Positions 1,528 through 58,658 are shown, counted from the whole stretch's first letter. The stretch: DNA of 62,772 nucleotides, filler included, from Limisphaerales bacterium (GCA_044225505.1; 13 parts of 13 records of this genome joined end to end with filler, not necessarily neighbours in it); one strand, 5' to 3'. Numbers and translations are program-made. The notes: a model not told the origin generated them from the sequence alone.

Positions 1528-2331
1528 TCCGAAGGCCCAGTCCTTCGCCAATGGCCCGGAGAGTGGCATAAGGGGGTCGCTTCGAACCGAGGCTAATGTC
1601 AGTGGTTGGGTGCCGATCGTGCTGGCGTGCAGCAGGCAGGTAGCGCGCCTTCTCGGTGAGGGGCAGGAAAAAGAAAAGGGTTCGGGCGTCACCAGTTCCC
1701 GTAGGCTTGGGTGAGGGACCCATTGAAGACTAACATTGCGCCCGAACCTTGAAACCACTGTGCGCTCGTCACGGATTTGGTGCTCCACATTCCTTGCTAA
1801 AGTCTAACCGCGTATTGCTGCTTGAGAGCGGTTGAATCTACAGCACTGCTGTGAAAGCCAGTCCGAAATCGGACGAGCAATTCTTCATGGCAGAAGCGAT
1901 CTCCATTTTCAAAGAGGTTGGCAAGCAGCCCTTTCCAACTTTCGGCAGGGATGGGAATACTTAACAACTACCACAGACCTGTAGCGCTCGCCGTCGAATT
2001 TGTCGCGCTCTTCGGAGCCCTCCAACCGCCCCCCTTGAAGGCGCTTCCGGTTCCCTCTTCGATCTCGGCTCGGGTCGTCACCCGTAGTCCGGTGTCTTTG
2101 CCTTGCCTTGGAACCTGGACTCGACAACAGGCGGTCAATACGGTGATCTGCAGTATGCACTCGTCCCTAGCGTTTCACTTTAGTGGCTGGCAGTCTCGGA
2201 GGGAGTGCCTCTCCCTCGGCCGTCACCTCACTGAACTCACTGAGCGGATTCGAGGTGGCTACCTCCGCTGGGCCACTCAATCGACCCTATTCCTATTGCT
2301 GACAGGCTGTTTATTGAGATCAATCTGCGGG

Positions 2332-3078
2332 ATGGAAATCGTGGCTCACCGGGGCGCGTCCGCGGATGCTCCCGAGAATTCGCTCACATCGATGAAGCTC
2401 GCCTGGGAACAAGGCGCCGATGCGATCGAGCTGGATCTTTGGTTGTCGAAGGACGGAAAACTCATTGTTTTCCACGATGGCGACACGAAACGGTTTGAGG
2501 CAAAGGCGCGTCGGGTGCCGAGTCTCTCCTGGGAAGATATGCAAGCGCTCGATATCGGAGCACTGAAGGGGGCGGTATTTCGGGGCGAACATGTCCCCAC
2601 GCTGGAATCGATTCTGGCGACGGTCACGCCAGGGCATCGAGTGTTTCTCGAGATCAAATGCGGCTCCGAAATCTTGCCGGAGCTCAATCGGGTCTTGGCG
2701 ATCACTGGGCGGCGTCCTTCGGAATTGGCCGTGATCAGTTTCGATTTTGAAACACTTCGGCGATCGAAAGTTATGTTCCCACAAGTCCCGCACTATTACC
2801 TCCACGGTTACAAAAGAGAGGCTAGTCCACAGAGCAATCCGGAACTCGCCGAGCTCGTGGAGCGTTGCCGAACCGCTGGCCTGGATGGCTTGAATTTGCA
2901 TTACGACTGGCCGATCACCCGCGAGTTTGTCACTCAGGTCCATAGCGCCGGCCTTAAGCTTTTCGTTTGGACAGTCGACGATCCGATTGTGGCACGACAA
3001 ATGACCGCGGCAGGAGTTGACGGAATTACAACGAATCGTCCGCGATGGCTGCGAGAACAGATTCGAACGACAAAATAG
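2332..3078 (+). CDS. Glycerophosphodiester phosphodiesterase (true start may lie upstream, adding a signal peptide)
   Basis: AHRGAS, PENS, IELDLWLSKDG, HD, WTVD and DGITTNRP motifs. Confidence 0.9.
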   Translation: MEIVAHRGASADAPENSLTSMKLAWEQGADAIELDLWLSKDGKLIVFHDGDTKRFEAKARRVPSLSWEDMQALDIGALKGAVFRGEHVPTLESILATVTPGHRVFLEIKCGSEILPELNRVLAITGRRPSELAVISFDFETLRRSKVMFPQVPHYYLHGYKREASPQSNPELAELVERCRTAGLDGLNLHYDWPITREFVTQVHSAGLKLFVWTVDDPIVARQMTAAGVDGITTNRPRWLREQIRTTK

Positions 3079-3181
3079 CTTGGGTGACTTCGTCTGTTTG
3101 TCCCCAGGCATATTTCAAGCTGACCAGGAAGACGAAATCCGTGGATTGTCCTGACGCTCGGGAACGTCTGAATTGCGAATT

Positions 3182-4024
3182 ATGCCAAAAGCGCCACCTG
3201 ATCCGGGAACTTGGGAATCGAGGTATCGAGAGCAGCTCCGGCGTCGGCCCGAGGCGATCGGCTTGATCGCTGAGGGAGACTCTTGGTTTTCCTTTCCGAA
3301 CTATCTTCGAACCAATCTGTTCCTCGAAATCGAACGGTGGAGCGACGATCGCGCTGTGACCTGGTCACTGGCTCGAAACGGCGACACTGCCGCGGAGATC
3401 ATGTTTGGGCAACAATACCAGACTCTACGTCGATTGTTCAGTGACGCCACTTTGAAGGTGGATGGATTTCTCTTCAGCGCCGGAGGAAATGATTTGGTGG
3501 CTGAAAACCTGCCCAATTTCCTTAACACGTACACTCCTGGAATGCAGTGGATGGATTGCCTGAACATGACGTTTCTGGATCGGCGCTTTCAAGAACTGGC
3601 GAGTGCATTTCAGCGACTGGCGGACTTGCGCGATGCCTACAAGCCCCAAACTTGGATCTTCACACACGCCTACGATTTCGCCGTTCCATCCGGGAGGGAG
3701 GTCCGTGTTCTGATCTTCACCCAAGGCGGTTGGTTAAAGAAGCAGTTCTTGAAAAAAGGAATTGAAGATCCCTCCATTCAGCAGGCGATCGTCGATCATA
3801 TGCTGACCCGGTTTGCGAGTCTGCAGGAGCACTTTGAACAAACAAATTCTCGGATTGCTTACGTTCGAACTCAGGGAACGCTCGATCAGGATACGGACTG
3901 GGGCGACGAGCTTCATCCTACCATCGCTGGCTTTCGAAAAATAGCGTTCAAACTGGAAACAGCGCTCAAGGATATCTTTCCCAGTTTACCGGCACCGTCT
4001 CGCGTGGCTTTGAGCATTCGTTAA
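3182..4024 (+). CDS. SGNH/GDSL-family hydrolase
   Basis: GDSWF block I, GGND block III, DELHP block V. Confidence 0.8.
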   Translation: MPKAPPDPGTWESRYREQLRRRPEAIGLIAEGDSWFSFPNYLRTNLFLEIERWSDDRAVTWSLARNGDTAAEIMFGQQYQTLRRLFSDATLKVDGFLFSAGGNDLVAENLPNFLNTYTPGMQWMDCLNMTFLDRRFQELASAFQRLADLRDAYKPQTWIFTHAYDFAVPSGREVRVLIFTQGGWLKKQFLKKGIEDPSIQQAIVDHMLTRFASLQEHFEQTNSRIAYVRTQGTLDQDTDWGDELHPTIAGFRKIAFKLETALKDIFPSLPAPSRVALSIR

Positions 4025-5141: not shown

Positions 5142-5241
5142 NNNNNNNNNNNNNNNNNNNNNNNNNNNNNNNNNNNNNNNNNNNNTTAATTAATTAANNN
5201 NNNNNNNNNNNNNNNNNNNNNNNNNNNNNNNNNNNNNNNNN
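5142..5241. other. Artificial contig spacer (first of 12)
   Basis: N-run/TTAATTAATTAA/N-run, giving stops in six frames. Also at 9992-10091, 15755-15854, 21328-21427, 26163-26262, 30972-31071, 35683-35782, 40275-40374, 45108-45207, 49669-49768, 54192-54291 and 58559-58658. Confidence 0.99.
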
Positions 5242-6456: not shown

Positions 6457-7445
6457 GCAATGGGGTCGCGTCTAAATAGTTGACAGACACGGTGTGAGCT
6501 TCCTTATAAAGCGGCCTCGTTCGGGATCGCCGACCAGGGCTTCCCAAACCGGTTCACCGCTCGGGCTGCCGACTGGCACTTGCCCCCGAGCTCGCTCATT
6601 ACCTCCGCCAATCGTGCTGCCGTGTCGCCAGATTCATCAACGCGTCGTGTGACCTAAACCTTTCGTTCCTGCACACCACAATGCGCTCGTCCTTCGACGT
6701 TGAGCAAAACTGGTAGAATCAAATCGGTCGGATCTACTGCTGACCGCGATGGGCATTTTCCAGTGCCGGTCGTCGGCGCTTGCGGAATACCTTGGACGCG
6801 CTGGCTGGCGATTTGTCGCACATGCCGGGAGCAATTAGCTCCTGGATTCAGTGGCTCCGCCGCGACGCGCGTTAGGCCGATGCGGCAGACTTCGATCGCT
6901 GGATGGGGCTGGATGTGACCCCCAAAGGTGGGTGGGATGCAGCACAGGAGGAAGGTGCGGGACGATTCGGAGAACGATTACGATTACGATTACGATTACG
7001 ATTACGATTACGATTACGATTACGATTACGATTACGATTACGATGAAGATGAAGATGAAGATTACGAGGGAAAGACCAAGATGGAAACGGTTGGGGAATA
7101 GGAAGATGTCGAGTTATCGGCACGTCTGGACAAAGCGCCAGAGGTCTGGCGCACTCCAAGACGCTGGCGCGCAAGGACTAAGGTTCTTTTGAAATTCGTC
7201 CGCCGCTCGGTCCAAAGGGGCGCCGGGTATCTCGGAGTGCGCCAGCGCCGCCCTTGGGCAGTCGGTCGTTCGCTGTGGCTCGGTTCCAAGCCGGTCCATC
7301 GCAGTTTATGTCTTCTGCAAGCTGGCAACAATTTGTTGACGGAGTGTGCGACAAATCGGCCAATGGACGCTTGGTTTGGGAACGGACCGTTCCCAAAACC
7401 TCCAACCGCAGGTGCCAAACTGTCACCAAATCACGGTCGCGCACC
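6457..7445 (+). repeat. Composite dispersed repeat, copy A (transposase-like 3' relic, palindrome half-sites, (GATTAC)11, REP-like units)
   Basis: Collinear similarity to 36000-36605, e.g. shared GCAATGGGGTCGCGT, AAAGCGCCAGAGGTCTGGCGCACTCCAAGACGCTGGCGCG and TTTGGGAACGGACCGTTCCCAAA. Confidence 0.85.
6976..7065 (+). repeat. Hexamer tandem array (GATTAC)11(GATGAA)3GATTAC
   Basis: Read directly from the sequence. Confidence 0.97.
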
Positions 7446-7832
7446 GACGGCTGCATCGCTTGCGACCGCATTTCCGCCTCGGCGCTCCGGCGTGGCGACC
7501 GACGTGTCCCGTCCGCAAATTGCGGACGGCTCCGGGGAAAAGCTGTGGAAAGCCCTCATCCTGACTGAGATCCCCGTCTGGTAGACGTCCGTGCAGTTCA
7601 CAGGGTGACGCGCCGGAAGAGAGCTTCGAAATCGCGAACAAGGTCTATTAAAAGGCGAATCGTTGAGATCTTCGCACTCACTCAACCCGGCCTCTGTAAA
7701 ACCGTTCCGATGTGCTGGCGGTCGGATCGCTAAGTTCTTGGCGAGCCCCAGCGCCAACGCTCGTGCTCGCGCTTGGGAACCCTGAAGAGTCGTTCAACGC
7801 CGTCGTGTCCTCGAGCGCATTGGCCGCGCGGC

Positions 7833-8687
7833 CTAGAATGTTCCGTCCTTCGACTGCGGATTGTACCAACAATCGTTGGGCCCGACCGGGTTCGGCGATT
7901 GCGGCCAAACGTTCTTGCCGGCCATATCCGGTGCAAACCATTTCGACATGCGGATGCTAAAGCCAGCACCCGAGAGCGAGCCGAGCGTTGCGAAGCCACC
8001 CACATTTTCAGCCTGATCCTTCGGTCTTCGGGTGGCGTGCCTCTGAGAAATACCCTCATGTGGCTGATTACCAACGTCGTTGAAGAGATAGTCGGATTCA
8101 CTCTCCGGGCCCTCCCAAAGCAAGACGCCCGTAGGTCTGAGTGATCCTAATCGGAATTTCGACGTCAACATCGCGGGGGGCGGAGAGGCGTAGCCAATGA
8201 TGGCTCCATTCCAGACATAACTCGTGATTTTGATCTGCCGCCGAACGTAGTCGAGCTTCCCCTTGCCGCTGGCCCGGTCTTTAACCTCTTTCGGACAGTT
8301 CATGATCCGCACGTCGGCCAGATACGATCCCAACTGCCCGCGCTTAAACGATTCCACCTGATTCGAGAGGATCGTGGGATCTTTGGACGGGTCGATGTTC
8401 CGGCCGTCCCGGATCTTGGTGTCGTGCGCCCAATTATCGCGATCCGGTGGGAAACCCCAGCTTGGGTAAGGAAGGAAATCATCGTTGTCCCCCGCGAACA
8501 TATGGGCAGCGAGCATGATCTGCCGGATGTTATTTAAGTCCTGCGTGATCAACGCCTTTTCTTTGGCCCGGCTCAAAGCCGGCAAGAGCATCCCAGCGAG
8601 AATCGCGATAATCGCGATCACCACCAGAAGCTCAATCAGTGTAAACGCCAAAGAGAGACCCTTGTTTGAGGAAGGCGAGGCTTTCAT
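7833..8687 (-). CDS. Prepilin-type N-terminal cleavage/methylation domain protein (PVC pilin-like family)
   Basis: [32 protein letters not shown]. Confidence 0.88.
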
Positions 8688-8835
8688 GGGAACTCCTCGA
8701 TTCATAGGCCTCCGCGGGAGCGACGTCAACTGCGTTTACGTGAGGAGACTCGTGATAAGAAGGAACCTGAGGGAATGGCCGAGTGCGGCGGAGCTGAGGT
8801 AAACCGCGCGGGTCGCCTGACGGGGATCATTCGAA

Positions 8836-8879
8836 GCAAGGCCGGTGCAAGGCCGGTGCAAGGCCGGTGCAAGGCCGGT
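8836..8879 (+). repeat. Four tandem copies of 11-bp GCAAGGCCGGT
   Basis: Read directly; lies upstream of the pilin-like gene. Confidence 0.9.
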
Positions 8880-8938
8880 CAGCGAGCGGCCTTGGTTCGG
8901 GATTGCACCGGTTTTGCACCCGGGTTGGTGCGTCCGAC

Positions 8939-9123
8939 TGGCTAGCGACAATCAACATTCTCCAGTGACGACAGTTAAAATTTGCCGGTGGTTCGGGGAG
9001 GATTTCGCCACGAATTAGCGCTGAGGCCGGATGGTCTCAGCGCTAATCCGCGGCGAATGATAACCAAACAGCAGTACCACCGACTCATGAATGAACATCA
9101 AGCCCACGGCAATCTCACCGTCA
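8939..9123 (+). mobile_element. IS21-like left-end remnant with truncated istA start
   Basis: TG-initiated end with two 23-bp-spaced repeats (CGACAATCAACATTCTCCAGT / CGACAGTTAAAATTTGCCGGT), then MITKQQYHRLMNEHQAHGNLT at 9057, which resembles IstA N-termini. Confidence 0.5.
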
Positions 9124-9206
9124 GATGCCGTTTCGGCAGGTTCATCCGCACATATTGCCGGTCCAAGAGATTCTCCTCCGAGCTGGGAAGCCGAACCGGC
9201 GGCCAG

Positions 9207-9253
9207 AATGTTGCACATTTCCGAAACAAATTGTTTACAGAGTGTGCAACATT
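9207..9253. repeat. 47-bp tripartite palindrome AATGTTGCACA-N6-AAACAAATTGTTT-N6-TGTGCAACATT
   Basis: Perfect 11-bp outer arms; related copy at 37069-37114. Confidence 0.8.
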
Positions 9254-9357
9254 TCCTGATCCTTCGAGTCGATGGCAGCTCTGCCGGCGCAAACCGAAGG
9301 GTGTGACCGGCTGGAACAATCGGTTGAATTTGCGGCTGGACTGTTCGTCAGAATGCT

Positions 9358-9991
9358 ATGAGCGACGTATCTTCTCATCCTGGGATGGCTCTGCCTACCG
9401 CCTATTTCGGTCGCATCGGAGGGTGCTTCGGCTACGGTTTGCTCGTCTGTCTTTGCACCTTTGGAGTTCAAGGGCAACCGGTGTCAGCCACGCGCGTCGC
9501 TCCGCCCGAGGTTCTAAAGCCGGAGGTCACGCTGCACGTCGCACCAGATGGGAAACCCGATGGGAACGGATCTCTGCAACAGCCGTTTTTGACACTGGAA
9601 CAAGCCCGCGATGAACTCCGGAGCCGCAAGAAAGCGGCCGGCCATGCGGTATCCAGTTTGATCTTAGTGCACGAGGGGGAATACCCTGTTCGCGAGACAT
9701 TTACACTGACGGCGGAAGATTCCGGAAGTCGCTCCGCTCCGGTCGTTTTCCGAGCGGCCGATCGAGCGAAACCGGTTTTTCGAGGAGGAACCCGCCTCAA
9801 GAACTGGCAGCCGCTCCAGGATTCGAAAGCCAAGGAGATGATACCCAGAGAATTGCAGGGCAAGGTGTGGGAATATGCCCTGACGAGCAATGAGATCGCC
9901 AGGGTGCTCCCGTTAAAGTTGGGCGGCTTCTCGAGTGGGAACGGATTCAAGACGCATCCCGCGCATGAACTTTTCTTCAACGGAAAGGCAA
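9358..9991 (+). CDS. Secreted right-handed beta-helix (pectin-lyase-fold) protein (3'-truncated)
   Basis: Signal peptide, HVAPDG..DGNGSLQQPFLTLEQARD, GEY, EDSG and ELFFNG motifs. Confidence 0.7.
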
Positions 9992-10091
9992 NNNNNNNNN
10001 NNNNNNNNNNNNNNNNNNNNNNNNNNNNNNNNNNNTTAATTAATTAANNNNNNNNNNNNNNNNNNNNNNNNNNNNNNNNNNNNNNNNNNNN

Positions 10092-11573
10092 ATGGGTCGC
10101 TATCCGGATCGGCGGTGGGCGACCACCTACCGTCCGGAGTTGCGCGTTAGCGTGGATCCGAAGCTGGCCTGTTTTGGAACGTGGTATGAACTGTTCCCGA
10201 GGTCATTGGGCAAAGCTGGCAGCCACGGGACCTTTCGGGAGGTCGAGGAACATTTGCCGCGCGTCGCGGAGATGGGGTTCAATGTGCTTTATTTCCCCCC
10301 TATTCATCCAATCGGGCAATCGTTCCGAAAGGGAAGGAACAATAATCCCGTGTGTCAACCAGGTGAACCCGGGAGTCCCTGGGCCATCGGCGCGCCCGAA
10401 GGCGGGCACAAATCGGTTCACCCAAAACTTGGCACGCTTGAGGATTTTCACCGACTTGTCTCTAAAGCGCGCGAGATGCAGATCGAGATCGCTCTCGACA
10501 TCGCGTTCCAGTGTTCGCCTGATCATCCCTATGTGAAAGAACACCCCGAATGGTTCCGCAAACGTCCCGACGGCTCGATTCAATACGCGGAAAATCCGCC
10601 CAAGAAATACCAGGACATCTACCCTTTTGATTTCGAATGCGAGGCCTGGGAAAGCTTATGGCGCGAGCTCAAAAGCGTTTTTGACTTCTGGATTGAGCAG
10701 GGCGTGACGGTCTTTCGCGTCGACAATCCACACACGAAGGCATTCCCGTTTTGGGAATGGTGCCTCGGCGAACTGAAACGAAAACACCCCGGGCTCATAT
10801 TCTTGTCCGAAGCGTTTACGCGGCCCAAAGTTATGTATCGGCTGGCGAAAGTGGGGTTCACGCAGTCTTACAACTATTTCCCGTGGCGCAACACCAAGCA
10901 GGAGCTGACGGAGTATTTCACGGAATTGACTCGGACGGAGGTGCGAGAATACCTGCGCCCCAATCTGTGGCCAAACACGCCGGACATTCTACCGCTATAT
11001 CTGCAATATGGAGGTCGGCCGGCATTCATGGTGCGGCTCATTCTTGCGGCCACGCTCGGCGCCAGTTACGGCATCTACGGGCCAGCCTTCGAACTCTGTG
11101 TGCAAGAATCGCGCGAAGTCGGCAGCGAGGAATATTTGAATTCCGAAAAGTACGAGGTTAAGGCTTGGGACCTCGACGCGCCGGAAAACCTGACTGGTTT
11201 GGTTCAACGGGTGAACCGCATTCGGCGGGAGAACGCGGCCCTGCAGGGCCGCGGCGCGTTGGACTTTCATCGCGTGGACAATGAACAAATCATCGCCTAC
11301 AGCAAGGCCACGGAGGATCGTGAAAACATCATTCTCGTGGTCGTGAACCTCGACCCGCACCACGTCCAACGCGGATGGTTGGATTTGCCCATTCGGGAAT
11401 TCGAAGTCCCGGAGAATGGAAGCTATCAAATGCACGATCTGTTAACTGGGGCGCGTTACCTCTGGAATGGGGTGCGCAATTTTGTGGAGCTTGATCCGCG
11501 GTTTGCTCCCGCCCATATTTTTCGGTTGCGCCAGCGCGTGCGTACTGAACGAGATTTTGACTACTATCTTTAA
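10092..11573 (+). CDS. glgE: Alpha-1,4-glucan:maltose-1-phosphate maltosyltransferase (5'-truncated)
   Basis: WYELFPRS, PPIHPIG, ENPPKKYQDIYP, FRVDNPHTK and NSEKYE. Confidence 0.95.
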   Translation: MGRYPDRRWATTYRPELRVSVDPKLACFGTWYELFPRSLGKAGSHGTFREVEEHLPRVAEMGFNVLYFPPIHPIGQSFRKGRNNNPVCQPGEPGSPWAIGAPEGGHKSVHPKLGTLEDFHRLVSKAREMQIEIALDIAFQCSPDHPYVKEHPEWFRKRPDGSIQYAENPPKKYQDIYPFDFECEAWESLWRELKSVFDFWIEQGVTVFRVDNPHTKAFPFWEWCLGELKRKHPGLIFLSEAFTRPKVMYRLAKVGFTQSYNYFPWRNTKQELTEYFTELTRTEVREYLRPNLWPNTPDILPLYLQYGGRPAFMVRLILAATLGASYGIYGPAFELCVQESREVGSEEYLNSEKYEVKAWDLDAPENLTGLVQRVNRIRRENAALQGRGALDFHRVDNEQIIAYSKATEDRENIILVVVNLDPHHVQRGWLDLPIREFEVPENGSYQMHDLLTGARYLWNGVRNFVELDPRFAPAHIFRLRQRVRTERDFDYYL

Positions 11574-11591
11574 GCGCCTGACTCCGCTGCT

Positions 11592-13360
11592 ATGGCCGCA
11601 CTGGAACGAATGAACAATTTAAATCGAGAGGGCTTGGACCAAGACCCGTTCTGGTATAAGACCGGCGTCATTTACGAAGTCCACGTTCGCGCGTTCTGCG
11701 ATAGCGACGGTAACGGCGTGGGCGATTTCCGGGGCCTGACCGGCAAACTCGACTACTTGAAGGACCTGGGCGTCACCGCGCTCTGGCTACTACCCTTTTA
11801 CCCCTCACCACTCCGAGACGATGGATACGACATCGCGAACTACTGCGACCATCTATGGCACACTCCGAGGACTTCAAGTCCTTCCTTAGCGAAGCTCACC
11901 AGCGAGGCCTGCGCGTCATCATCGAGCTAGTGTTAAACCATACCTCCGACCAGCACCCTTGGTTCCAGCGCGCCCGTCGCGCCGAATCAGACAGCCGCTG
12001 GCGTGCGTTCTATGTATGGGGTGATTCACCTGACCCTTATCGCGATACTCGCATCATCTTCAAAGACGTTGAGGTTTCCAACTGGACCTGGGACCACGTT
12101 GCCAACGCCTATTATTGGCATCGCTTCTTTTCCCACCAACCGGACCTAAACTATGACAACCCGGAGGTCTTTGAGGAGATGATTCGAGTGTTGGACTTCT
12201 GGCTGGATTTGGGAGTGGACGGCGTCCGCCTGGATGCCGTGCCCTATCTCTATGAACGCGAAGGCACGAGTTGCGAGAATCTCCCGGAAACCCACGCTGC
12301 TCTAAAGAAGCTGCGCGCTCACGTCGACAAAAAGTACGGCGACCGGATGCTGCTGGGCGAGGCGAACCAATGGCCGGAAGACGCTGTGGCCTATTTCGGC
12401 CAAGGGAAGGGCGACGAGTGTCATATGGCCTTCCACTTTCCGCTGATGCCGCGCCTGTTCATGGCGGTTCGAATGGAAGATCGCACTCCTATTGTCGACA
12501 TTCTCGAGCAGACGCCGCCTATCCCTGAGACAGCCCAGTGGGCGTTGTTTCTCCGCAACCACGACGAACTCACGCTTGAGATGGTTACGGACGAGGAGCG
12601 TGATTACATGTATCGGATGTATGCTCACGTCCAGCAAGCGCGGCTGAATCTGGGTATACGTCGTCGGCTCGCCCCCCTGCTCGGCAACGATCGCAAGCGG
12701 ATTGAACTTCTTAACGCACTGCTCTTTTCTCTTCCGGGCACTCCCGTCCTCTACTACGGCGATGAAATCGGCATGGGCGAAAATATTTTTCTCGGCGATC
12801 GCAACGGCGTGCGCACGCCCATGCAGTGGAGTTCGGACAAGAACGCGGGCTTTTCCCGCGCCAATCCGCAAGCGCTCTACCTGCCGATTATCTACGATCC
12901 GGAGTACCACTACGAAGCGGTGAACGTCGAAGGGCAGTTGGGGAATCCACATTCCCTGCTCTGGTGGATGCGCCGACTGCTGGCGCTACGAAAGAAGTGG
13001 CGCGCCCTGGGGGAAGGTCGCTGCGAGTTCCTCCAGCCGGAGAATCGGAAGATTCTTAGCTACATCCTTCGCGACGAGCAGGAGACGTTATTGGTCGTGG
13101 CGAACCTGTCGCGCTTCGTGCAACCGGTGGAACTGGACCTGTCTGCGTTCAGGCAAATGGCGCCCATAGAGCTTTTCGGTCGGACCGAGTTTCCGGTGAT
13201 CACGGACAAGCCTTACTCGTTGACTCTCGGTCCGCACTCATTTTACTGGTTTTCACTGGAAAGCAAGCGGGCGTCCGCGATCACCCCGGGGGCTCCAGTT
13301 GCGCCACGAGCAGCAGGTGTTGCCGGGAACTGGATAAACGTCCTTTTCGGGCAAGCCTAA
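11592..13360 (+). CDS. treS: Trehalose synthase/maltose alpha-D-glucosyltransferase domain (frameshift near 11860)
   Basis: [42 protein letters not shown] and [12 protein letters not shown]. Confidence 0.92.
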
Positions 13361-36605: not shown

Positions 36606-37150
36606 CTCGATGGCCGATTCCTGGCGAGCGTAAGGCCGCCGGAACGAGAGGGGTTGCCCGGGCTTTGCTGTCTCCATGTTTCATTCGTGCCATTCATCCG
36701 GCTGCGGCCAAGTGACGGCAAGAATTGCCAAACGCCCCTGTAAACGCCTGAAGCAGCGCCTGTTCCCCTCGGATCAGCAATGGCTGATTGGCCGATGCGC
36801 TGCTCGGGTTCCCTTCGTCTTGGGCTCGTCTTGTGGAGGCTACGGAGAAAAGCTGTGGAGGGCCACAGCACTCCAAGACCTCGCGGAGAATCGCGCGCGC
36901 AATCGAGATTGGGAAAGCGTCTTTGGGCCTTTGAATGTTGCCGTGCGTGCAGCGAGAGTAGTTTTAAGGAGGCCTTCGCGAGTTTCGTCGGCTTCAGTTC
37001 AAGAGCTCCGCCTGTCTCTTGTTATGCAACGGCGTTCAATTCAGGTTTCTTGGGCACCCTCACCGTCAAATGTTGCACACGATGGGAACAATTGGTCTCG
37101 CCGTGTGCGACATTTCACCCAGAACCCGCGTCCGGCGCGGTCCGGCCGTA

Positions 37151-43277: not shown

Positions 43278-43693
43278 AGGATTTGATGAAACTTTGGATG
43301 GTTGATTCATGGGTCCCGTCCACAAACGGTGGCGTTTCCCATCCTCCTATACGCTTTTCCGGCGCGGAAACGGTCATCCGCCAAGTGAATTCTGATCACG
43401 GTGTCCGATCAAGTATGCAGCATACATCTTCGGAACGAGTCACAACGTGAACCTTTGGCATGGGAGAGCATTCCCGACAACGATTGCCGCGTGGATTGTT
43501 CAGCTGAAAGATGGCACTTCTCTGACGGCGCAGGTTCATCCGCCAGGCGCAGAAGCTTCCAGTTGGATGGCTGGGGTGGCTGGTCACCGCGCCCGGCGTT
43601 GAGGGTGTATGTCAGACTTAAAACGCCCCAGCGATAACGCAACGGGGCCGAGCGTCAACGTCGTTCTGGTCAGGCCGAACGGGAGAGAGATGC

Positions 43694-43816
43694 TCATAAC
43701 AATCGCGCGGAGCAGAAACGCCGCTACGGCCTTACTATTCGCGGGCTCGGGGTATATTGCGTGGCTGACCGGCGGTCAGGCCTTCCAGCGTCGGTCGCTC
43801 ACCCTCATTGTTGGCG
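43694..43816 (+). other. Degenerate attC-like site
   Basis: TCATAAC...TTCCAGCGTCGGTCGCTCACCCTCATT-GTTGGCG; 3' half resembles array sites (TTCCAGCGCCAGTCGCTC...GTT); 123 bp. Confidence 0.5.
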
Positions 43817-43871
43817 CAAAACGGGTGTCGGCGTCGTGATCATAATCGTAATCGTAATCGAAGGCTGGTGC

Positions 43872-43972: not shown

Positions 43973-44014
43973 GGAAGCATGCAGCCGGCAAATCGCCAAC
44001 CAGGCACTGTCCTT

Positions 44015-44104
44015 CATAATCATAATCATAATCATAATCGTAATCGTAATCGTAATCGTAATCGTAATCGTAATCGTAATCGTAATCGTAATCGTAATCG
44101 TAAT
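44015..44104 (-). repeat. Hexamer array, (CATAAT)4(CGTAAT)11 on +, i.e. (GATTAC)n on -
   Basis: Read directly; minus-strand flank GCGGACGAAGGTG matches the sequence preceding the array in copy B. Confidence 0.95.
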
Positions 44105-44964
44105 CCGTATTCTTCCCACCACCTTCGTCCGCTGCGTATCCCCCAACGCGGACCGTCACGATCTTCCGGCACGGCCGGCCCAGGAAGGTATTCAGCTTTG
44201 CCCCAACGCGCGTCGTGGGGGCGCAGGAATCCTCATTTTACGGAGCGCGACTGTGTCCGCAGGACCAGTCGCAGATTTCGATTTTCGTAAGCCATTAATC
44301 TACCGGGACTTTCTGTGACGCAGCCCCGGTCCGCGGATGTCGTGGGAATTGCTGATGTTGGCGCCGCCGAATCCAGGAGCCATTTGCTCCAGGTATACGA
44401 TATACTGGCTGATGCTATCGGGACGAGTTTTCGGTCGGATCGCCTGACTACTCCGTGCTGCTTTTAGGAGGCCCTGTCCGTTATCCATTGGGCAGCTAGT
44501 CCCATTAGATCCAGCCAGCACGACATTCCGTGGAGCTGCGGGGACGACCCTCGCGGGTTACGTTGTGGGGATTACCCCGGCTCTTCCAGGAGTGCCCGCG
44601 GGAGGTGATGCCACGGTGCTCATGCGTTTGATTGGACCGAACGGGTTCTCTGAGAATTACGAACATATCAAATTCGTGTCTTGGCGGTGGGACGGCGACG
44701 CCGCCGAATCTGCAACTTGGGACCAGCCCGCTTGTCTGCTTCCCCGAGCCATCGCCATTCCTCCCTGGAGGCGTCGGGCTCGCTGTGGTGGCCGCTTTCG
44801 CGCTGGGCTTGTCCTCAGAATCACCAATGACACAAAGCCATCGTCATCGGCGGCTGATGGGGGTTGCTGTGATGCGCCGGTCTCCAGCGAAGACTCCGGA
44901 AATCCGGTAGTTGCCAAGTATCGAAGGTCAGGACGCAAATTGAGCCTGCCCGCCGGCGAAGAAA

Positions 44965-45107
44965 GGAGCGCGGGATTTATCCTGATGCCATTCGGTAATT
45001 GCTCTCTGGTGGCGGATGGGGCAATCCGAGGAAGACAGCTCGGCGTTTAACGCCGAGGGCGAATGGGCGCGATTCCAAGTCCCGACGGGACGGCCGAGGA
45101 CGGGCAT
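44965..45107 (+). mobile_element. MITE-like element left end, diverged copy
   Basis: GGGATTTATCC-TGATGCCATTCGGTAATT...GCTCGGCGTTTAACGCCGAG...GTCCCGACGGGAC. Confidence 0.65.
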
Positions 45108-45207
45108 NNNNNNNNNNNNNNNNNNNNNNNNNNNNNNNNNNNNNNNNNNNNTTAATTAATTAANNNNNNNNNNNNNNNNNNNNNNNNNNNNNNNNNNNNN
45201 NNNNNNN

Positions 45208-46213
45208 GGTTGCCAAAGGTGTCGGTCTTGTAGGAAAAGAAATCTCCCGGGCCCGTGACGCTCTTAAGAGTGACCGTCACGCGATTGTCTACGAAAGCGC
45301 CCTCGGGAATGTCATCACCGCCGTAGCCAAGGTAAAGCAAATCTTCGTTTTGCGTTTGTGGCAGAAGCCAGATGGCCGAGCCGGAGGCCCCCAAAAAGCT
45401 GAACTTTGAGTCGGCTGGCACGGTCGTTTTGGCTCCGGGTTTGACTCGCAGCACGACTTCGCTCGCCGCCAATTCCTGACCGGTTGCGTCCTGGCCAGCG
45501 TGCAGGTTCCAGGCGCCGGTGGCGTCGTCGTACTCCAGAGCCAGATCCGTGTGTCCAGTGGACCACACCGTTGGAGTGGTCACAGAGAAGGTGAAGGCTA
45601 TTGGACCGCTGGACGTTGGCTTGTTCCCGGCGACCAATGTGCCCGATGCTTCAAGGACCACGGTGTAAGTGCCTGCCGCCGTGAAAGCCCAGTTCAGGTG
45701 CGCGTCGCCGCCCGCTTGCACCGTCGCCGAGTCAGCGGCGGTGATCCCATCTCTCGTGTTGAAATAGACGACCGGATTGCCGAAAGTGTCCGTCTTATAA
45801 GAAAAGAAATCCCCCGGACCTTCCACACTTTTCAGTGTAACCGTCACCGCGTCTCCGGTGAAAACTCCGGCTGGAATTCCGTCGCCGCCATAGCCCAGGT
45901 AAAGCAGTTCTTCGTTTTGGGTTTGAGGCAGGACCCAGACAATCGTTCCCGCTCTGCCCAGGAAGCTGAACTTGGGATCGGCCGGAATGGGTGACCGGGC
46001 CAGCGCCGCGACATGCAAGACGACGTTGCTGGCCGCATACTCGGTATCGAACGTATCGGATCCAACGTGGAGATCCCAAACGTTGTTGGTGCTGTTGTAA
46101 TCCAGTGCCAGGTCGGTATGGCCCACCGACAAGACGTTTGACTGAGCACGCGCGCACAGGCCAAACAAAACCAGCAAGTTGCATAGTAAGAGCAGTCTGA
46201 TTTTCGAATTCAT
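45208..46213 (-). CDS. Exported choice-of-anchor M / TIGR03769-type repeat protein (3'-truncated)
   Basis: Signal peptide and two repeats of GHTDL...WxLPQTQ...LGYG...GPGDF; AHLNWAFT..GTY. Confidence 0.8.
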
Positions 46214-49768: not shown

Positions 49769-50222
49769 GCTGAAGCCGACCGGAGATCTTCGATAACGCT
49801 CTCCAATCCACCTCGTCCACATCTCCATCAGCTCGCTGTCGCGCTCCTGCCTCGCTCCAGTGTCCATAGTGCGAGTCCGTGATAAAACCATCACCCCGGC
49901 CTCCGAAGTAGAGTTGGATGAGGCCCACTCCGGAGATCCGCCATCGAAAGCTGTGGCCAGCAATCTTGAGGGCAATCCGCTCCAAACCCATGTCACGCAT
50001 GACGCTGGCGGACCAAAGCTGCAGAAGAACCGCGTGCCCACCTCCATGCGGGTCGTAACCAAGTTGAAACCCCTCGGCCAACTCTTCGAAAGAGTGAAAC
50101 TCGCGCAACTCCTCGTCATACCGGGAATAGGACTCAAAAATCCTGGCGTCGGTCTCATCGAGGATGAAGTGCACCAGGTCGCGGATATCGTCTTCTAGAG
50201 CGTAAAAATCTAAGGACGCCAT
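49769..50222 (-). CDS. Cassette ORF, hypothetical (3'-truncated)
   Basis: ATG ~24 nt after the GTTAAAC core; MASLDFYALE..., GLIQLYFGG. Confidence 0.75.
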
Positions 50223-50245
50223 GAACCTGCTGCTGCCGTTTAGCG

Positions 50246-50371
50246 GTTTAACAGTAAGCCGAACGACTGCCGCTGACAACGCCAGCCTCGCAACGCCCAG
50301 CAGGTTGGGATTTTGCCAGCGTCTTCGACCCGAGGCGAGCCGCGGTAGCTCGTTCCGGCGACTGGTTAAGC
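50246..50371 (-). other. attC site (126 bp)
   Basis: R'' GCTTAAC-5nt-L'' GCCGGAAC ... L' GTTCGGC-5nt-R' GTTAAAC; the upstream stop TAA lies inside R''. Confidence 0.88.
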
Positions 50372-50764
50372 CGTTGCTGCTTTCTCAAATCCATACTGAG
50401 AAATAAGAATGGCTGCTGCCTGGTCCAAGCAGTGCTGCTCCGAACCCAAAGGCTTGCGGTCGTCTCTCGCCACCTCCCAAAGCCGAAATCCCATGCAGCG
50501 ACTGCAATGCAAAATCCACTCAGAAACTCCGTCTACCGTCCGCACCGGAATCAACTCCAGCAAATACTTGCGAGAGTCCGCGCCGAAAATATGAAAGCAC
50601 CAACCATGTGAATCCTGAATCAAATTCGAGCACACAGTCTCAGCCCGTGCCATCATCTCACGAAGGTCTGACATCACCTGCTTGCCCGGCAACTCGGCTG
50701 CATCCTCAAGATCAATATCTGGGTCGAACAACATCTTTCGGTGGATGAGATCCTTCGCAGTCAT
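50366..50764 (-). CDS. Cassette ORF, hypothetical
   Basis: Starts 8 nt after the GTTAAGC core and stops in the next inverse core. Confidence 0.7.
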   Translation of the reverse strand: MTAKDLIHRKMLFDPDIDLEDAAELPGKQVMSDLREMMARAETVCSNLIQDSHGWCFHIFGADSRKYLLELIPVRTVDGVSEWILHCSRCMGFRLWEVARDDRKPLGSEQHCLDQAAAILISQYGFEKAATA

Positions 50765-50772
50765 CAGTGCCG

Positions 50773-50898
50773 GCTTAACAGAAAACTGAGCGACTGGCGC
50801 TGGAAAGGCAAGCCCGAGCGCGAATGAGCGGATCAAACTTGCCGCTGCCGTGAAACGGATTGGTGCTGCGCCAGCTCGTCTCCTGTGTCTGGTTCGCC
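50773..50898 (-). other. attC site (126 bp)
   Basis: GGCGAAC...CGAGCTGGCGC / GCGCCAGTCG...GTTAAGC. Confidence 0.85.
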
Positions 50899-50899
50899 C

Positions 50900-51277
50900 T
50901 CACACGACCTCCATAATGGCGGCGATCTTTGATTTCTGGAGCCCCGAAGCAAGCCTGAGCCACTCCTCAAGATCGTGCCCGTGTGGCCACACTCCACCCG
51001 AAGCGCCGTGGGTTTTCAGGAGTTTTACGAACGGAAGATGGCCCTTATGTGCGGCAAGCGAGAGAGCAGTCTCACCGAAGTTGTTGAGCGCCCCGAGGTC
51101 TGCACCACGTTCAAGCAGCAAGGAGCCGATCTTTGTATTGCCTTCAAGCGCCGCGAGCATAAGCAGCGTCCAGCCGAGCCGGTTCGATGCATTCGGGTCG
51201 ATACCGGTCGGGATTGCCTCTTCAAGAGCGGCCATTTGCCCGCGCTTTATTAACCGATGTGCTTGCGCGAAGGTCAT
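50900..51277 (-). CDS. Cassette ORF, ankyrin-repeat protein
   Basis: GWTLLMLAALEGN..LLLERGAD; GETALSLAAHKGH. Confidence 0.88.
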   Translation of the reverse strand: MTFAQAHRLIKRGQMAALEEAIPTGIDPNASNRLGWTLLMLAALEGNTKIGSLLLERGADLGALNNFGETALSLAAHKGHLPFVKLLKTHGASGGVWPHGHDLEEWLRLASGLQKSKIAAIMEVV

Positions 51278-51280
51278 CTT

Positions 51281-51376
51281 GGCGAACGACCAAGAGCAAC
51301 GACGAGCGGCAGTCTGCGTTGCTCAAATTCAATGTTGATGTTCCCGCCGCTCATTCGTTGCCTCGACTTGTTCGGC
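51281..51376 (-). other. attC site (96 bp)
   Basis: GCCGAAC-5nt-GAGGCAAC ... GTTGCTC-6nt-GTTCGCC. Confidence 0.85.
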
Positions 51377-51402
51377 GTCCTCATGCCACTTAGGCAAACT
51401 CG

Positions 51403-52095
51403 TCAGCGTCTATGACGGCGTGCCACCGAGACGATCAGCAGTCCCAAACCAATTACAAGCAAGCCGATCACCGGCGGTTCCGGTATAAAATAAATCCCAT
51501 CGACTTTGGCATGTCCGCTGAACGGGATAGGGGTGAATACAACCCGCAACTCCACGTTCTTGCCAGCAAATTCCTCAATCGGAATCGCCACTAATCCGGC
51601 GAATCCGGGAGCGTAGGGATTCTCAGGCCAAACCCAAGCCACTGGCGGCGACTTTCCGTCCAGTGTTACTCCGATATTATTCGCAAAGCCTTGCACGACC
51701 ATAGCAGTCGCGTTCGCGGGCACATCTCCTCGTTGAACGAGGGAGAAGGATTCCGGCCAATCCTTAGCCAGAAGGGAGAAATGGCCGAGCATTTGGAAAA
51801 CGGTGCCTGCGTCTGGATCAAACGCAGGCTCAATTACCGAAAGTGCCGAGAGAGGCTGATTAAACGGAATTTGGGTCAACGGAGAGTCGGTCGAGTCCAC
51901 TACGTGCCAACCCGGGAGCAGGTCGTTTACCGACCCGCTAGTGATGCCAGTTGTCGGATCATAACTAAGGCGAGTCGTGTTGGCGTTCTCAAAAAGCAGA
52001 TTCTCGAATGGAGCTGCATGGCATTGAAAAGCGGCTACTAAGGCCGCTAGCAGAAAGCTGTGATCATGGGTCGCCAGGTGATCTCTAATGCGCAT
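51403..52095 (-). CDS. Cassette ORF, PEP-CTERM exported protein (alternative start 52149)
   Basis: Signal peptide; C-terminal IPEP + hydrophobic helix + RRHRR. Confidence 0.8.
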   Translation of the reverse strand: MRIRDHLATHDHSFLLAALVAAFQCHAAPFENLLFENANTTRLSYDPTTGITSGSVNDLLPGWHVVDSTDSPLTQIPFNQPLSALSVIEPAFDPDAGTVFQMLGHFSLLAKDWPESFSLVQRGDVPANATAMVVQGFANNIGVTLDGKSPPVAWVWPENPYAPGFAGLVAIPIEEFAGKNVELRVVFTPIPFSGHAKVDGIYFIPEPPVIGLLVIGLGLLIVSVARRHRR

Positions 52096-52156
52096 AAGAT
52101 ATCCAACTCGAGCTGCTGAGGGCCGCCGCATTTGTGCAGGTTTACTCATTCCTTTT

Positions 52157-52282
52157 GCCGAACACCAACTTGAGCGACTGCCGCTGTAAACACAAGTTAC
52201 GACCTGAAGAAAGCTGCCGAATTCCCTGAGGCCTTCGACGCAAAGCGGGCGGCGGCAGCTCGTCTCTAAGGTCGGGTTAGCC
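52157..52282 (-). other. attC site (126 bp)
   Basis: GGCTAAC...CGAGCTGCCGC / GCGGCAGTCG...GTTCGGC. Confidence 0.85.
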
Positions 52283-52298
52283 AATTTTGCTCCCACAC

Positions 52299-52697
52299 TC
52301 ATGTTTCCAAATTCTGCACCGCCTGTTTTATCGCTTCGGTGAACTCCTTAATCTCGTTGCCGGCGAGCACGAAGTCCACCAATTGACCCTGTCCGTGGGC
52401 TCTGAGAAAGAACCTATCACCAAACTCATCGTCCTTGATAAAGCGCACTGGCGCGTTATGAAACGTTCCGGCAATGAGCTCGGAAAACTCCAACGCCCCT
52501 GTTTTCAGCCGTAGGAACGAATGGATTTGCTCCACGGTGCCACGTTCCGACAACTTGAATCGGAATTGCCACATCGGCGTGCGAATGGCCAACTGAATGT
52601 CGCATGGATCCTCGAAATTCTCATCAACGTCGACATCGAAACGGCCCGCACTTCCAACCGCCGCCAAACCGTAATTCTTCGTTTGATTGACTGACAT
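52299..52697 (-). CDS. Cassette ORF, hypothetical
   Basis: 132-aa ORF filling the space between two attC sites. Confidence 0.75.
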   Translation of the reverse strand: MSVNQTKNYGLAAVGSAGRFDVDVDENFEDPCDIQLAIRTPMWQFRFKLSERGTVEQIHSFLRLKTGALEFSELIAGTFHNAPVRFIKDDEFGDRFFLRAHGQGQLVDFVLAGNEIKEFTEAIKQAVQNLET

Positions 52698-52716
52698 AGC
52701 GACGCGTGGCGTCGAC

Positions 52717-52845
52717 GGCTAACGATGAGCTGACCGACAGCCGCCGACAAACCGAATTCGGGAGGAGACACTCTGGCATCCGACAACCGGAGCGCCTAGG
52801 CAAATGCTTCGACTAGCGGTTGTTCGGTCCAACGATTGGTTCGTC
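52717..52845 (-). other. attC site (129 bp)
   Basis: GACGAAC-5nt-GTTGGACC ... GGTCAGC-5nt-GTTAGCC. Confidence 0.85.
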
Positions 52846-52931
52846 GCTTTCCTCATTTCTTCCCACTTGTGCAAGGCGGACCGAAATCAAGCCGTCCGTT
52901 GCCGCGCAGCAACCAACAGAGCGCCCAAAGA

Positions 52932-53813
52932 TCAGTGTTGCAGATTTCTAGAGCCGTTGGTGTTTACCACGGACTCGACTTCAATTGCACTCTCGTCACG
53001 GTAGGCTGGACGAACCGTCATCCGGATTGCACCGTAAACTCGATTACTCCGCGAGCGGAAATAAAACTGATTTCGCAAAACGCTGGTCCAATTTGAATCC
53101 GCTGGGTCCATCGTGATTTTCAATTTCGTTTCGTATCCCGTTTCCGGCGCTTGAAATAGGAACTCGTCCGTGGCTTCTCTTATACCGCCGTCAAGAGCAG
53201 CAAGCTCAAAATCCCACGAGTAACGGTCTCGCGGTTTGATTCTGTTCGGTCTTGAGATCCGCACCGTAAGATCACCGTCTCCGCCAGAATCCACATTTTT
53301 CTTGTTATTGATTAGATCTAAAGTGTAGGGCCTGCCGTCAGGAACGAACCCGAAAAAGCCTGTATTCGAGATCGTGCTCTCGCGCGGTCCCAACCGCCAC
53401 ATGCGGATTACGACGGGCTCTGCTGGATTTGGTATGAACGTTTCAGGGGAATTCCCGTATGAAAATACACAGCGCGCACCGGGGGACAACTTGTAACCTG
53501 CCTTTTCTACAGCTGCAATCTCCAAAACATCACCGGTTCGTCCGTGCCATTTGAACCGGCCGTCTCTGTCGGAAAATACTTCGACCTTAGCAGGCGTTGC
53601 AGTTGGTCCGATAATCGGGATGAATTCCCAATGGCGCACCCCCGCCAAAAGTCTTACTCCGGCGATTGGATTTTTGTCTTGGTCGATAATGCGGCCCCAG
53701 AAATCAATCGGCACGTTCATCGATGTCTGATTCCTGCTGAGCTGCCAGCTAAGTGCGCCGACGAGTATGAAGCCCCAGATTAAAAGGATTTGCTTCTTCT
53801 CTTGTTGGCTCAT
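52932..53813 (-). CDS. Cassette ORF, membrane-anchored carboxypeptidase-regulatory-like domain protein
   Basis: N-terminal TM, FWGRIIDQDKNPIAG, SDRDGRF, KAGY and C-terminal NTNGSRNL. Confidence 0.75.
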   Translation of the reverse strand: MSQQEKKQILLIWGFILVGALSWQLSRNQTSMNVPIDFWGRIIDQDKNPIAGVRLLAGVRHWEFIPIIGPTATPAKVEVFSDRDGRFKWHGRTGDVLEIAAVEKAGYKLSPGARCVFSYGNSPETFIPNPAEPVVIRMWRLGPRESTISNTGFFGFVPDGRPYTLDLINNKKNVDSGGDGDLTVRISRPNRIKPRDRYSWDFELAALDGGIREATDEFLFQAPETGYETKLKITMDPADSNWTSVLRNQFYFRSRSNRVYGAIRMTVRPAYRDESAIEVESVVNTNGSRNLQH

Positions 53814-53876
53814 TGGCGCCCCTTGAATTAAAGTGATAGAAGGATCTGCTCCAACAATGCCCAGCGCTTCATGGTC

Positions 53877-54002
53877 GTCGAACAAGGAGCCAAGCGACTG
53901 GCGCTGGAAAGCAAAGCTGAAGCGAAACCATCGCTTCCGATTTGTCTCCCAGCATGGAGCGGGCTGGTGTCGCGCCAGTTCGCCTTCGGCGTTTGGTTCG
54001 AC
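53877..54002 (-). other. attC site (126 bp)
   Basis: GTCGAAC...CGAACTGGCGC / GCGCCAGTCG...GTTCGAC. Confidence 0.85.
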
Positions 54003-54006
54003 TCTT

Positions 54007-54191
54007 TCATTCGAGATCTGCAAAATACTGCTTCACGTCGTAGTTTCCGATCAGCCGTGCCAGGCCAACTGGCGTTTGACCATGTTTGTTCGGACGGTTC
54101 GGATCCGCACCTCGAGAACGGAGGAGTCTTATCGTTTCACCTCTACCCTTCGAGTCGAAGACCGCTCGCCCTAAGGGCGTGTTTCCGTGAG
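54007..54191 (-). CDS. Cassette ORF, ankyrin-repeat protein C-terminus (5'-truncated; absent from the ORF track)
   Basis: HGNTPLGRAVF...LLRSRGADPNRPNKHGQTPVGLARLIGNYDVKQYFADLE*. Confidence 0.8.
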
Positions 54192-54291: not shown

Positions 54292-54564
54292 TAGCTCGGC
54301 GTTTTAACGCCGAGCTTGAATGGGCGCGATTCCAAGTCCCGACGGGACGGCCGAGGACGTGGCATTGAACGGAAGAACCGGAGATTAAGCGGATCACAAG
54401 GTCGTAGAACCCAAACGCCCTTTCTCGCCGCCCTCAGTCGCCCCTCCGGGGCTTGGGCCCTCTCACTTGAGCACCCGGCGCTAAAGCGACCGGGCTTCTC
54501 TCATTCTGTCCCTTCCGGGACTGAATAGAATTACCGAATGGCATTAGAATAAATTCCGCGATCC
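54292..54564 (+). mobile_element. MITE-like element, internal REP-like pair and right end
   Basis: Inverted REP-like arms, then AATTACCGAATGGCATTA-GAATAAATTCCGCGATCC. Confidence 0.7.
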
Positions 54565-58558: not shown

Positions 58559-58658
58559 NNNNNNNNNNNNNNNNNNNNNNNNNNNNNNNNNNNNNNNNNN
58601 NNTTAATTAATTAANNNNNNNNNNNNNNNNNNNNNNNNNNNNNNNNNNNNNNNNNNNN

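Follow-up and report, generated by a model that had tools for sequence, protein, structure and literature searches.

Positions 49769-54191 of the window, the 62,772-nt stretch of DNA analyzed here, correspond exactly to one entire contig (C156; 4,423 bp) of a draft Limisphaerales genome. The contig contains five complete and two cut gene cassettes, delimited by six palindromic sites that resemble the attC recombination sites of integrons. Each cassette consists of one promoterless-looking open reading frame (ORF) on the minus strand and one attC site. We consider it very likely that C156 is a true fragment of a cassette array belonging to a chromosomal integron, from a probable Verrucomicrobiota genome. 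The draft comprises 9,036,838 bp in 342 contigs (N50 42,045), with an estimated completeness of 95%. The window was assembled from 13 sequence pieces, all small contigs (4.1-5.7 kb), joined by 12 identical linkers (N44-TTAATTAATTAA-N44; for example, at window 5142-5241, 9992-10091 and 58559-58658). Because such linkers flank C156, its neighbors in the window are artificial joins and not its neighbors in the cell. Both ends of the contig lie inside ORFs.

All long ORFs between the sites are on the minus strand, and each directly precedes one site (Table 1). The stop codon either overlaps the site, as in cassette B, where the TAA is inside GCTTAAC, or lies 1-86 nt from it, and the 5' leaders to the ATG are 9-69 nt long. 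Each of the six sites combines 7-nt boxes, ending in AAC or starting with GTT, with an unpaired spacer of 5 nt and an L-box stem that contains bulges. A first-pass annotation of this DNA had listed the same six positions and lengths, all of which matched, and its six cores were recovered when re-read on the minus strand, the top strand of the cassettes. It had also stressed that four of the six cores depart from the consensus GTTRRRY / RYYYAAC. We confirmed the departure but do not find it remarkable, because among attC sites only the AAC triplet (and its GTT partner) is conserved; the sites of a single chromosomal integron often resemble one another closely (PMC5027507). GTTRRRY is thus a loose consensus and not a defining attC feature. 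Among the arrays compared genome-wide, the AAC and GTT triplets were both within 3 nt of the model ends in 22 of 30 sites.

Table 1 Cassettes and attC sites of contig C156, in window coordinates. Scores are from covariance model R1, and z compares the folding energy with dinucleotide shuffles.
Feature	Position	Strand	Length	Inverse core	3' core	R1 score (bits)	Folding z	Bottom-strand bulges	ORF and remarks
Cassette A (partial, runs off contig)	49769-50251	-							ORF 49770-50222, 151 aa without stop, no family; starts at TT of GTTAAAC (50252..50246)
attC site 1	50246-50371	-	126 nt	GCTTAAC	GTTAAAC	104.2	-1.47	C17, C23	Inverse core contains TAA stop of cassette B ORF
Cassette B	50252-50778	-	527 bp						ORF 50369-50764, 132 aa, no family
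attC site 2	50773-50898	-	126 nt	GGCGAAC	GTTAAGC	110.2	-1.97	C16, T20, C24	
Cassette C	50779-51286	-	508 bp						ORF 50903-51277, 125 aa, ankyrin repeats (Ank_4 8.3e-15, Ank_2 1.1e-13)
attC site 3	51281-51376	-	96 nt	GCCGAAC	GTTCGCC	22.9	-2.60		Second subfamily; outside training set
Cassette D	51287-52162	-	876 bp						ORF 51406-52149, 248 aa; weak PEP-CTERM-like C-terminus; start codon uncertain
attC site 4	52157-52282	-	126 nt	GGCTAAC	GTTCGGC	106.7	-1.97	At 16, 20, 24 (from parsing of the top strand)	
Cassette E	52163-52722	-	560 bp						ORF 52302-52697, 132 aa, no family
attC site 5	52717-52845	-	129 nt	GACGAAC	GTTAGCC	74.6	-0.75	T23	
Cassette F	52723-53882	-	1160 bp						ORF 52935-53813, 293 aa, no family; stop 86 nt from site
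attC site 6	53877-54002	-	126 nt	GTCGAAC	GTTCGAC	111.4	-3.54	C16, C20, T24	
Cassette G (partial, 5' part off contig)	53883-54191	-							ORF tail 54010-54189, 60 aa, ankyrin repeat (Ank 9.2e-6)

The cores are matched within cassettes. In the five complete cassettes, 19 of the 20 variable positions of the 5' cores are complementary to the inverse core at the cassette's own 3' end; four pairs are perfect and one has a single mismatch, as the first-pass annotation had noticed. For comparison, 15 of 24 positions pair within single sites, and the 25 non-adjacent combinations average 2.08 of 4, none of them being perfect. In an exact permutation test, only one of the 120 orderings, the true order, reached the observed complementarity score. 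The two cores of cassette B, GTTAAGCCG and CGGCTTAAC, are complementary over 9 nt. Because both cores of one cassette sit between two sites, this signal is independent of the assembled cassette order. Genome-wide, C156 included, 8 of 18 adjacent pairs were perfect versus 5.4% of 685 non-adjacent combinations. The signal is present but weaker in the other arrays, and the misses came mostly from an array of short sites on contig C60.

A profile built from five of the C156 sites alone retrieved 16 more copies on 13 other contigs (E <= 2.3e-4). We aligned 19 long family members (alignment A2) and used this alignment as the basis of a covariance model, R1. A MAFFT alignment of the six C156 sites alone had misaligned the 96-nt site and was discarded in favor of A2, so that this site served as an unseen case. 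The arms of the 19 sites are conserved and the central ~64 nt are variable, with a mean column identity of 62%. A 19-pair structure, consisting of AAC/GTT and the L-box stem, was paired in 92.0% of the alignment cells compared with 81.5% in column shuffles, and cells in which both partners had changed numbered 42 versus 13.3; none of 500 shuffles reached either value. Pairing fell to 24-50% when the partner was slid by 1-3 columns. RNAalifold recovered the L stem unaided, with compensatory changes in 7 of 15 pairs.

R1 scored all six C156 sites on the minus strand (Table 1), and the best plus-strand score was 10.3 bits. Five of these sites were in the training set. The 96-nt site, which R1 had not seen, was detected with E 4.9e-5 on the contig and 6.9e-4 on the entire window. 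A genome-wide search of the kind proposed by the first-pass annotation, in which 150 of 5160 candidates were scored, found at least 26 family sites, distributed among many contigs and three or more integron platforms. Many family sites are within ~1 kb of contig ends, as expected if the assembly broke at repeated sites. With the arrays fragmented in this way, the 'super'-integron scale suggested by the first-pass annotation is at most possible. At least three site length classes (59, 92-96, and 126 nt) coexist in the genome. At the DNA level (blastn), copies of the 96-nt subfamily were found at C216:1775-1868, C314:16-107 and C292:15110-15205 (83-88% identity) and at C72:6868-6957 (77%), as well as in a relative (G001:C29:91563-91661; 88%). 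Over the other 58 kb of the window, R1 returned two weak matches only (19.2 and 14.9 bits). These lie on two other contigs, at window 43693-43815 (+) and 36727-36825 (+); the former ends in ...CATAAC / GTTGGCG and may be a solitary or decayed site.

The position of the unpaired bases indicates which strand would be recombined. On the top (minus) strand, every unpaired base of the L stem is on the AAC-carrying arm, at positions 16/17, 19/20 and 23/24 from the inverse core. This was read from 12 of the 19 sites, the other seven having failed the parser through stem-base mismatches. Extrahelical bases define the strands of attC sites: in the bottom strand, the one that recombines, they protrude from the arm facing AAC. 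A site has two or three, at 16, sometimes 20, and 23/24, with a 6-bp stem from the first to the last, as in VCR2 of Vibrio cholerae (G16, T20 and T24; PMC5027507). The window plus strand is therefore the bottom strand, and the orientation of the ORFs agrees. Constrained bottom-strand folds matched the parsed bulge positions and gave the bulged hairpin wherever the fold was clean. The unconstrained minimum-energy fold of site 4, on the other hand, contains no R/L hairpin. The architecture described by the first-pass annotation holds for the AAC/GTT boxes, the 5-nt spacer and the bulged L boxes, but there are two or three extrahelical bases per site and not one.

We searched the assembly with the integron-integrase model TIGR02249 and found one gene above the cut-off, at C60:69282-70256 (-), encoding a 325-aa protein. 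This protein aligned with the V. cholerae integron integrase of known structure (2a3v) over residues 10-308 (E 8.8e-49), including the integron-specific insert, a stretch around ...KYP...W..LFPS that is missing from other tyrosine recombinases. This alignment also matches the positions that we take to be catalytic in tyrosine recombinases (R, K, H-x-x-R, H and Y). An IntI with the insert, which the first-pass annotation had suggested looking for, is thus present in the assembly. At 387 bp from the start of the integrase gene, the opposite strand carries a 126-nt site (100.8 bits) that belongs to the same family, and another follows it. The inverse core of the first site, GCGCAAC, has its exact complement in the heptamer GTTGCGC, which occurs 38 bp from the integrase start; the chance expectation of a given 7-mer in 390 bp is ~0.02. 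This heptamer is located where attI is expected and probably represents the attI crossover side of this platform. The first cassette that it delimits is ~470 bp long and has one plus-strand ORF. Integrase, putative attI core, first cassette and 126-nt site are therefore adjacent on one molecule.

Based on these features and in line with the established integron model, we propose the following mechanism. The plus strand of the window, as the bottom strand, would fold so that the R box (AAC/GTT) and the L box pair on either side of the 5-nt unpaired spacer, leaving two to three bases extrahelical on the arm that faces AAC. IntI, of which C60 carries an intact copy, would bind the folded site and cut AAC at its A/C junction (G/TT on the top strand). 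Cassettes would be excised as circles by attC x attC recombination and then re-inserted at attI. We predict that the C60 integrase acts on the C156 sites, that these fold in vivo and that C156 is attached to a platform.

Other samples gave evidence of cassette exchange. Parts of C156 occur in 19 public runs from 11 studies, and we compared the Logan contigs of four of these runs: X2 and X5 from one activated-sludge study, X3 from a soil study, and X16, which contains 98% of the sampled words and is possibly the source itself or near it. Runs X8-X15 had small word shares and enter neither the comparison nor any reading of habitat. In X2 and X5, contigs match cassette A (49769-50252) with 0 differences and then have two different continuations. 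An 898-nt contig of X3 (record 19) matches 50777-51287 with 0 differences, that is, cassette C plus the shared GTT/AAC bases, and is flanked by unlike sequence, 282 nt on one side and 105 nt on the other. Records 15 and 16 of X2 match cassette E (52161-52724) with 0 differences, and their loose ends fall at 52157 and 52724. All these breaks coincide with the predicted G/TT positions or are a few bases off. It is unlikely that the assembler created them by joining through shared site arms, because each break is preceded by 31 bases of unique cassette sequence. Other junctions are shared with C156: C-D (site 3) is bridged in X2 and X5, D-E (site 4) is bridged in X3, and single X16 contigs bridge sites 1, 3, and 4. 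Parts of C156 that are uncovered in X2, X3 and X5, such as most of cassettes B and F, are no evidence of absence. Two further joints, one in X2 that 'goes back 1421' and one in X16 that 'skips 65', both fall within similar site arms and were not used. The cassettes are thus mobile units exchanged at G/TT, and the shuffled order that the first-pass annotation had proposed to look for appears as the same cassettes, without differences, in different contexts in other metagenome studies.

The site family is widespread among relatives of the host. R1 found it in 23 of 41 genomes, this genome being counted. Of the 12 other genomes in the host's taxonomic family, 11 have it, as do 11 of the 28 further families sampled across the order. 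In 17 of the 41 genomes (this one again counted), an integron integrase scored above the cut-off, and none of 14 control genomes had a match at E <= 1e-40. When C156 was compared by blastn with its own genome and 12 genomes of the family, all 22 non-self matches were on the sites (within 17 nt) and none was on a cassette ORF. Conserved sites combined with unshared cargo are the pattern of an integron. Across 80 integrase loci from named genomes of many phyla, R1 gave 14 matches at E <= 0.01; in 13 the site has the canonical location, on the strand opposite the integrase and upstream of it. Of the matches beside integrases, the best two (78.6 and 60.1 bits) are in Verrucomicrobia metagenome-assembled genomes (MAGs), and the nearest named relatives of the integrase (45-52% identity) are in Verrucomicrobiota MAGs. 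The earlier assignment of the host to the Planctomycetes-Verrucomicrobia-Chlamydiae (PVC) group therefore appears plausible from sequence similarity.

Several observations weigh against reading C156 as part of a chromosomal integron array. The contig has no integrase and both of its ends are cut inside cassettes, so any link to a platform is presumptive; taken alone, it would be classed as an attC cluster without an integrase, a class that requires two or more attC sites on a replicon and no integrase near them. The C60 integrase barely passes the family cut-off (268 versus 265 bits; relatives score 276-464 bits). Two genomes of the same genus have 5 and 6 sites and no integrase at E <= 1e-40, one of them being only 63% complete. 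Position 16/17 is C in nearly all parsed sites (one T, one G), where G is usual, and position 23/24 is T or C. A G at 16 and a T at 23/24 have been called 'usual' or 'typical' rather than obligatory, with the T described as conserved (PMC5027507, PMC7439510). One residue position has been named as contacting the extrahelical bases, and IntI1 and VchIntIA differ there; we draw no inference from this. Folding energies were only modestly below those of dinucleotide shuffles, with z above -1.5 at sites 1 and 5. The run data are assembled contigs and not reads, and neither a circle junction nor excision was seen directly. The genome also has an estimated contamination of 4.7%, yet the same site family occurs on large contigs (72-124 kb).

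The lack of an integrase on C156 raises the alternative that the contig is a relic or orphan cluster, that is, one of the attC site clusters that have no integron integrase (CALIN), with real cassettes that are detached from, or no longer recombined by, any integrase in the genome. Orphan clusters are described as common (PMC4889954). In this genome the integrase on contig C311 is a pseudogene, C60:64316-64828 retains only an N-terminal integrase fragment, and an IS91-family element has cut another array, on C122. However, the intact C60 integrase stands beside sites of the same 126-nt family, the own-cassette cores are almost undecayed, and the 100%-identical cassettes found in different contexts elsewhere point to recent exchange, so we regard a relic or orphan cluster as unlikely. 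We find it extremely improbable that the palindromes are generic intergenic repeats, such as repetitive extragenic palindromic (REP)-like or terminator hairpins, unrelated to integron recombination. They are indeed intergenic, GC-rich, imperfect palindromes that follow ORFs, and their total folding energy is near that of shuffled sequence. They also match no Rfam family, but the scan of C156 (no match at E <= 1) is uninformative, as Rfam has no attC family. Against such an origin stand the AAC/GTT boxes, the constant spacer, bulges confined to one arm at canonical positions, strong strand asymmetry, core complementarity within each cassette, a place beside integron integrases here and in other phyla, and breakpoints at G/TT in other samples.

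A further concern is the cassette order, which could be partly an assembly artefact if real cassettes had been misjoined through the repeated sites. Contigs of X16 break inside sites 2, 5, and 6, where overlaps are only 26-29 nt, and leave a 9-nt uncovered gap at 52034-52042; many sites of the assembly also lie close to contig ends. Because of these breaks, the order across sites 2, 5, and 6 rests on the original assembly, which again weighs against our reading. The bridging of sites 1, 3, and 4 by single X16 contigs, together with the C-D junction in X2 and X5 and the D-E junction in X3, makes misjoining improbable, and the own-cassette complementarity lies in single pieces and does not depend on order. 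Overall, the interpretation of the first-pass annotation, attC sites with cassettes inserted at G/TT, is supported by structure, strand asymmetry, ORF layout, the integrase with its attI-side core, the relatives and the breakpoints.

The other platforms of the genome have features of their own. The C311 integrase pseudogene has in-frame stops and a frameshift, although its insert motif is readable, and three sites lie on the opposite strand (positions 7180-11592 of the locus C311:16000-34000); in one of these sites the AAC has decayed to AAT. The N-terminal integrase fragment at C60:64316-64828 (-) is to the left of the intact gene and is followed by a plus-strand array of seven sites of 47 to 104 nt, several of them nearly identical 59-nt sites, with poor own-cassette complementarity. 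The fragment and this array (positions 8317-12888 of the locus C60:56000-72350) may be a tandem or nested second integron. A run of N at C60 ~70,960-71,000, within the second cassette (X in translations), marks a gap or a masked stretch.

We also considered whether two 351-aa Xer-like recombinases, on C122 and C201, represent a second, insert-less type of integron integrase, as suggested by family sites directly upstream. This was rejected: both score below the integron-integrase cut-off (166 and 159 bits versus 265), the insert is unmatched, and each gene is followed by an IS91-family transposase gene, confirmed with Pfam for C122 (Y2_Tnp 1.3e-42, Zn_Tnp_IS91 3.1e-22). The IS91-family element on C122 (positions 1288-3715 of the locus C122:43999-48051) lies directly against GTTGAAC, which is the inverse core of a complete 126-nt attC at the head of an array. 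Its copy on C201 is 77% identical and adjoins a weak 13-bit site, and a partial homologue in the relative G007 (C925; 64% identity) is 123 bp from a 55-bit site. GTTC-type cores may be the insertion target of this element, and IS91 elements presumably prefer GTTC-type sequences.

The cargo of C156 is mostly of unknown function, which is typical of environmental cassettes. Four cassette proteins had nothing above curated thresholds in Pfam, NCBIfam or PADLOC. The C-terminus of the cassette D protein matched PF07589 at 18.1 bits, below the Pfam cut-off of 20.7. No resistance or defence family was found above curated cut-offs in the cassette proteins; the defence-system and NCBIfam matches of six of them were only ankyrin-repeat look-alikes, far below cut-offs, and were dismissed.

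Elsewhere in the window, a 57-nt direct repeat (95% identical) is present at the end of one contig (45046-45102) and the start of another (54303-54359), with a 36-nt inverted partner nearby (89% complementary; 44965-45000 and 54529-54564). It looks like a repeated element where the assembly broke. A hexamer tandem repeat, (TCATAA/TCGTAA)n with ~17 units, occupies 43840-43862 and 44002-44117 in overlapping ORFs on both strands. The minus-strand ORF 45152-46213 contains three collinear internal repeats with 567-bp spacing (76-79% identity; 45210-45423 and 45777-45990), an arrangement that points to a domain duplicated in tandem.

Verrucomicrobial integrons, attC families specific to a lineage and loose GTTRRRY cores have all been published before, and a lineage-specific site family is an expected feature. 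An IntegronFinder survey had recorded integrons in both Planctomycetes and Verrucomicrobia, as well as orphan clusters (PMC4889954). Our literature search found no description of this 126-nt site family; supplements, which may list such sites, were outside the search. The C at extrahelical position 16, the divergent integrase, the several platforms in one genome and the direct metagenomic evidence of cassette exchange are mildly unusual. It is also conceivable, though doubtful, that the site family (C16, cores near GTTMGSC, ~126 nt) and the divergent integrase clade co-evolved, giving a specificity partly orthogonal to that of proteobacterial integrons. In that event, the standard attC model might under-call such sites, and the integron content of the phylum would be underestimated. 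The C156 array leaves the current picture of integrons unchanged. It does provide a well-documented chromosomal integron from a phylum in which integrons are known but little described, and the public metagenomes provide evidence that its cassettes are being reshuffled in populations from sludge and soil. With a pyrimidine as their first extrahelical base, the sites offer a small natural test of how far base identity counts in integrase recognition.

Compared with known systems, the C156 sites are like REP sequences and bacterial interspersed mosaic elements (BIMEs) in being repeated imperfect palindromes between genes, but REP sequences lack the AAC/GTT boxes, one-armed bulges, own-cassette complementarity and integrase association present here. 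With the attC sites of mobile class 1 integrons, such as that of aadA7, they share the R''-L''...L'-R' plan and the crossover at G/TT (PMC5027507, PMC7439510). Two-bulge variants with 6-bp spacing are also described among class 1 attC sites, and sites 1 and 5 of C156 have bulges at 16/17 and 23. Mobile sites, in contrast, are mostly 57-70 nt long, with tiny terminal loops, and accompany resistance genes, whereas the C156 sites are 96-129 nt long and accompany ankyrin-repeat, PEP-CTERM-like and unknown proteins. The concept is shared with the taxon-specific attC families of Ghaly et al. 2021 (PMC8352920), in which taxon-conserved sequence and structure are likewise captured by covariance models. 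That work presents 11 taxon models, Planctomycetes included, and its main text does not contain the term 'Verrucomicrobia'. R1 is a usable lineage-specific site model that would be additional to these.

The V. cholerae (super)integron with its VCR sites also shares many features with C156. Its sites are similar in length (~126-133 nt) and have an R box, a 5-nt unpaired spacer and extrahelical bases at 16, 20, and 24. Both systems have one short ORF per cassette and a lineage-wide site family, and the integrase found here aligns with VchIntIA through the insert. The family described here differs from VCR in having C rather than G at 16/17, T or C at 23/24, and cores of about GTT(A/C)(G/A)(S)C rather than GTTRRRY. 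It also differs in its conserved arms with a variable center and in the coexistence of at least three site length classes in one genome.

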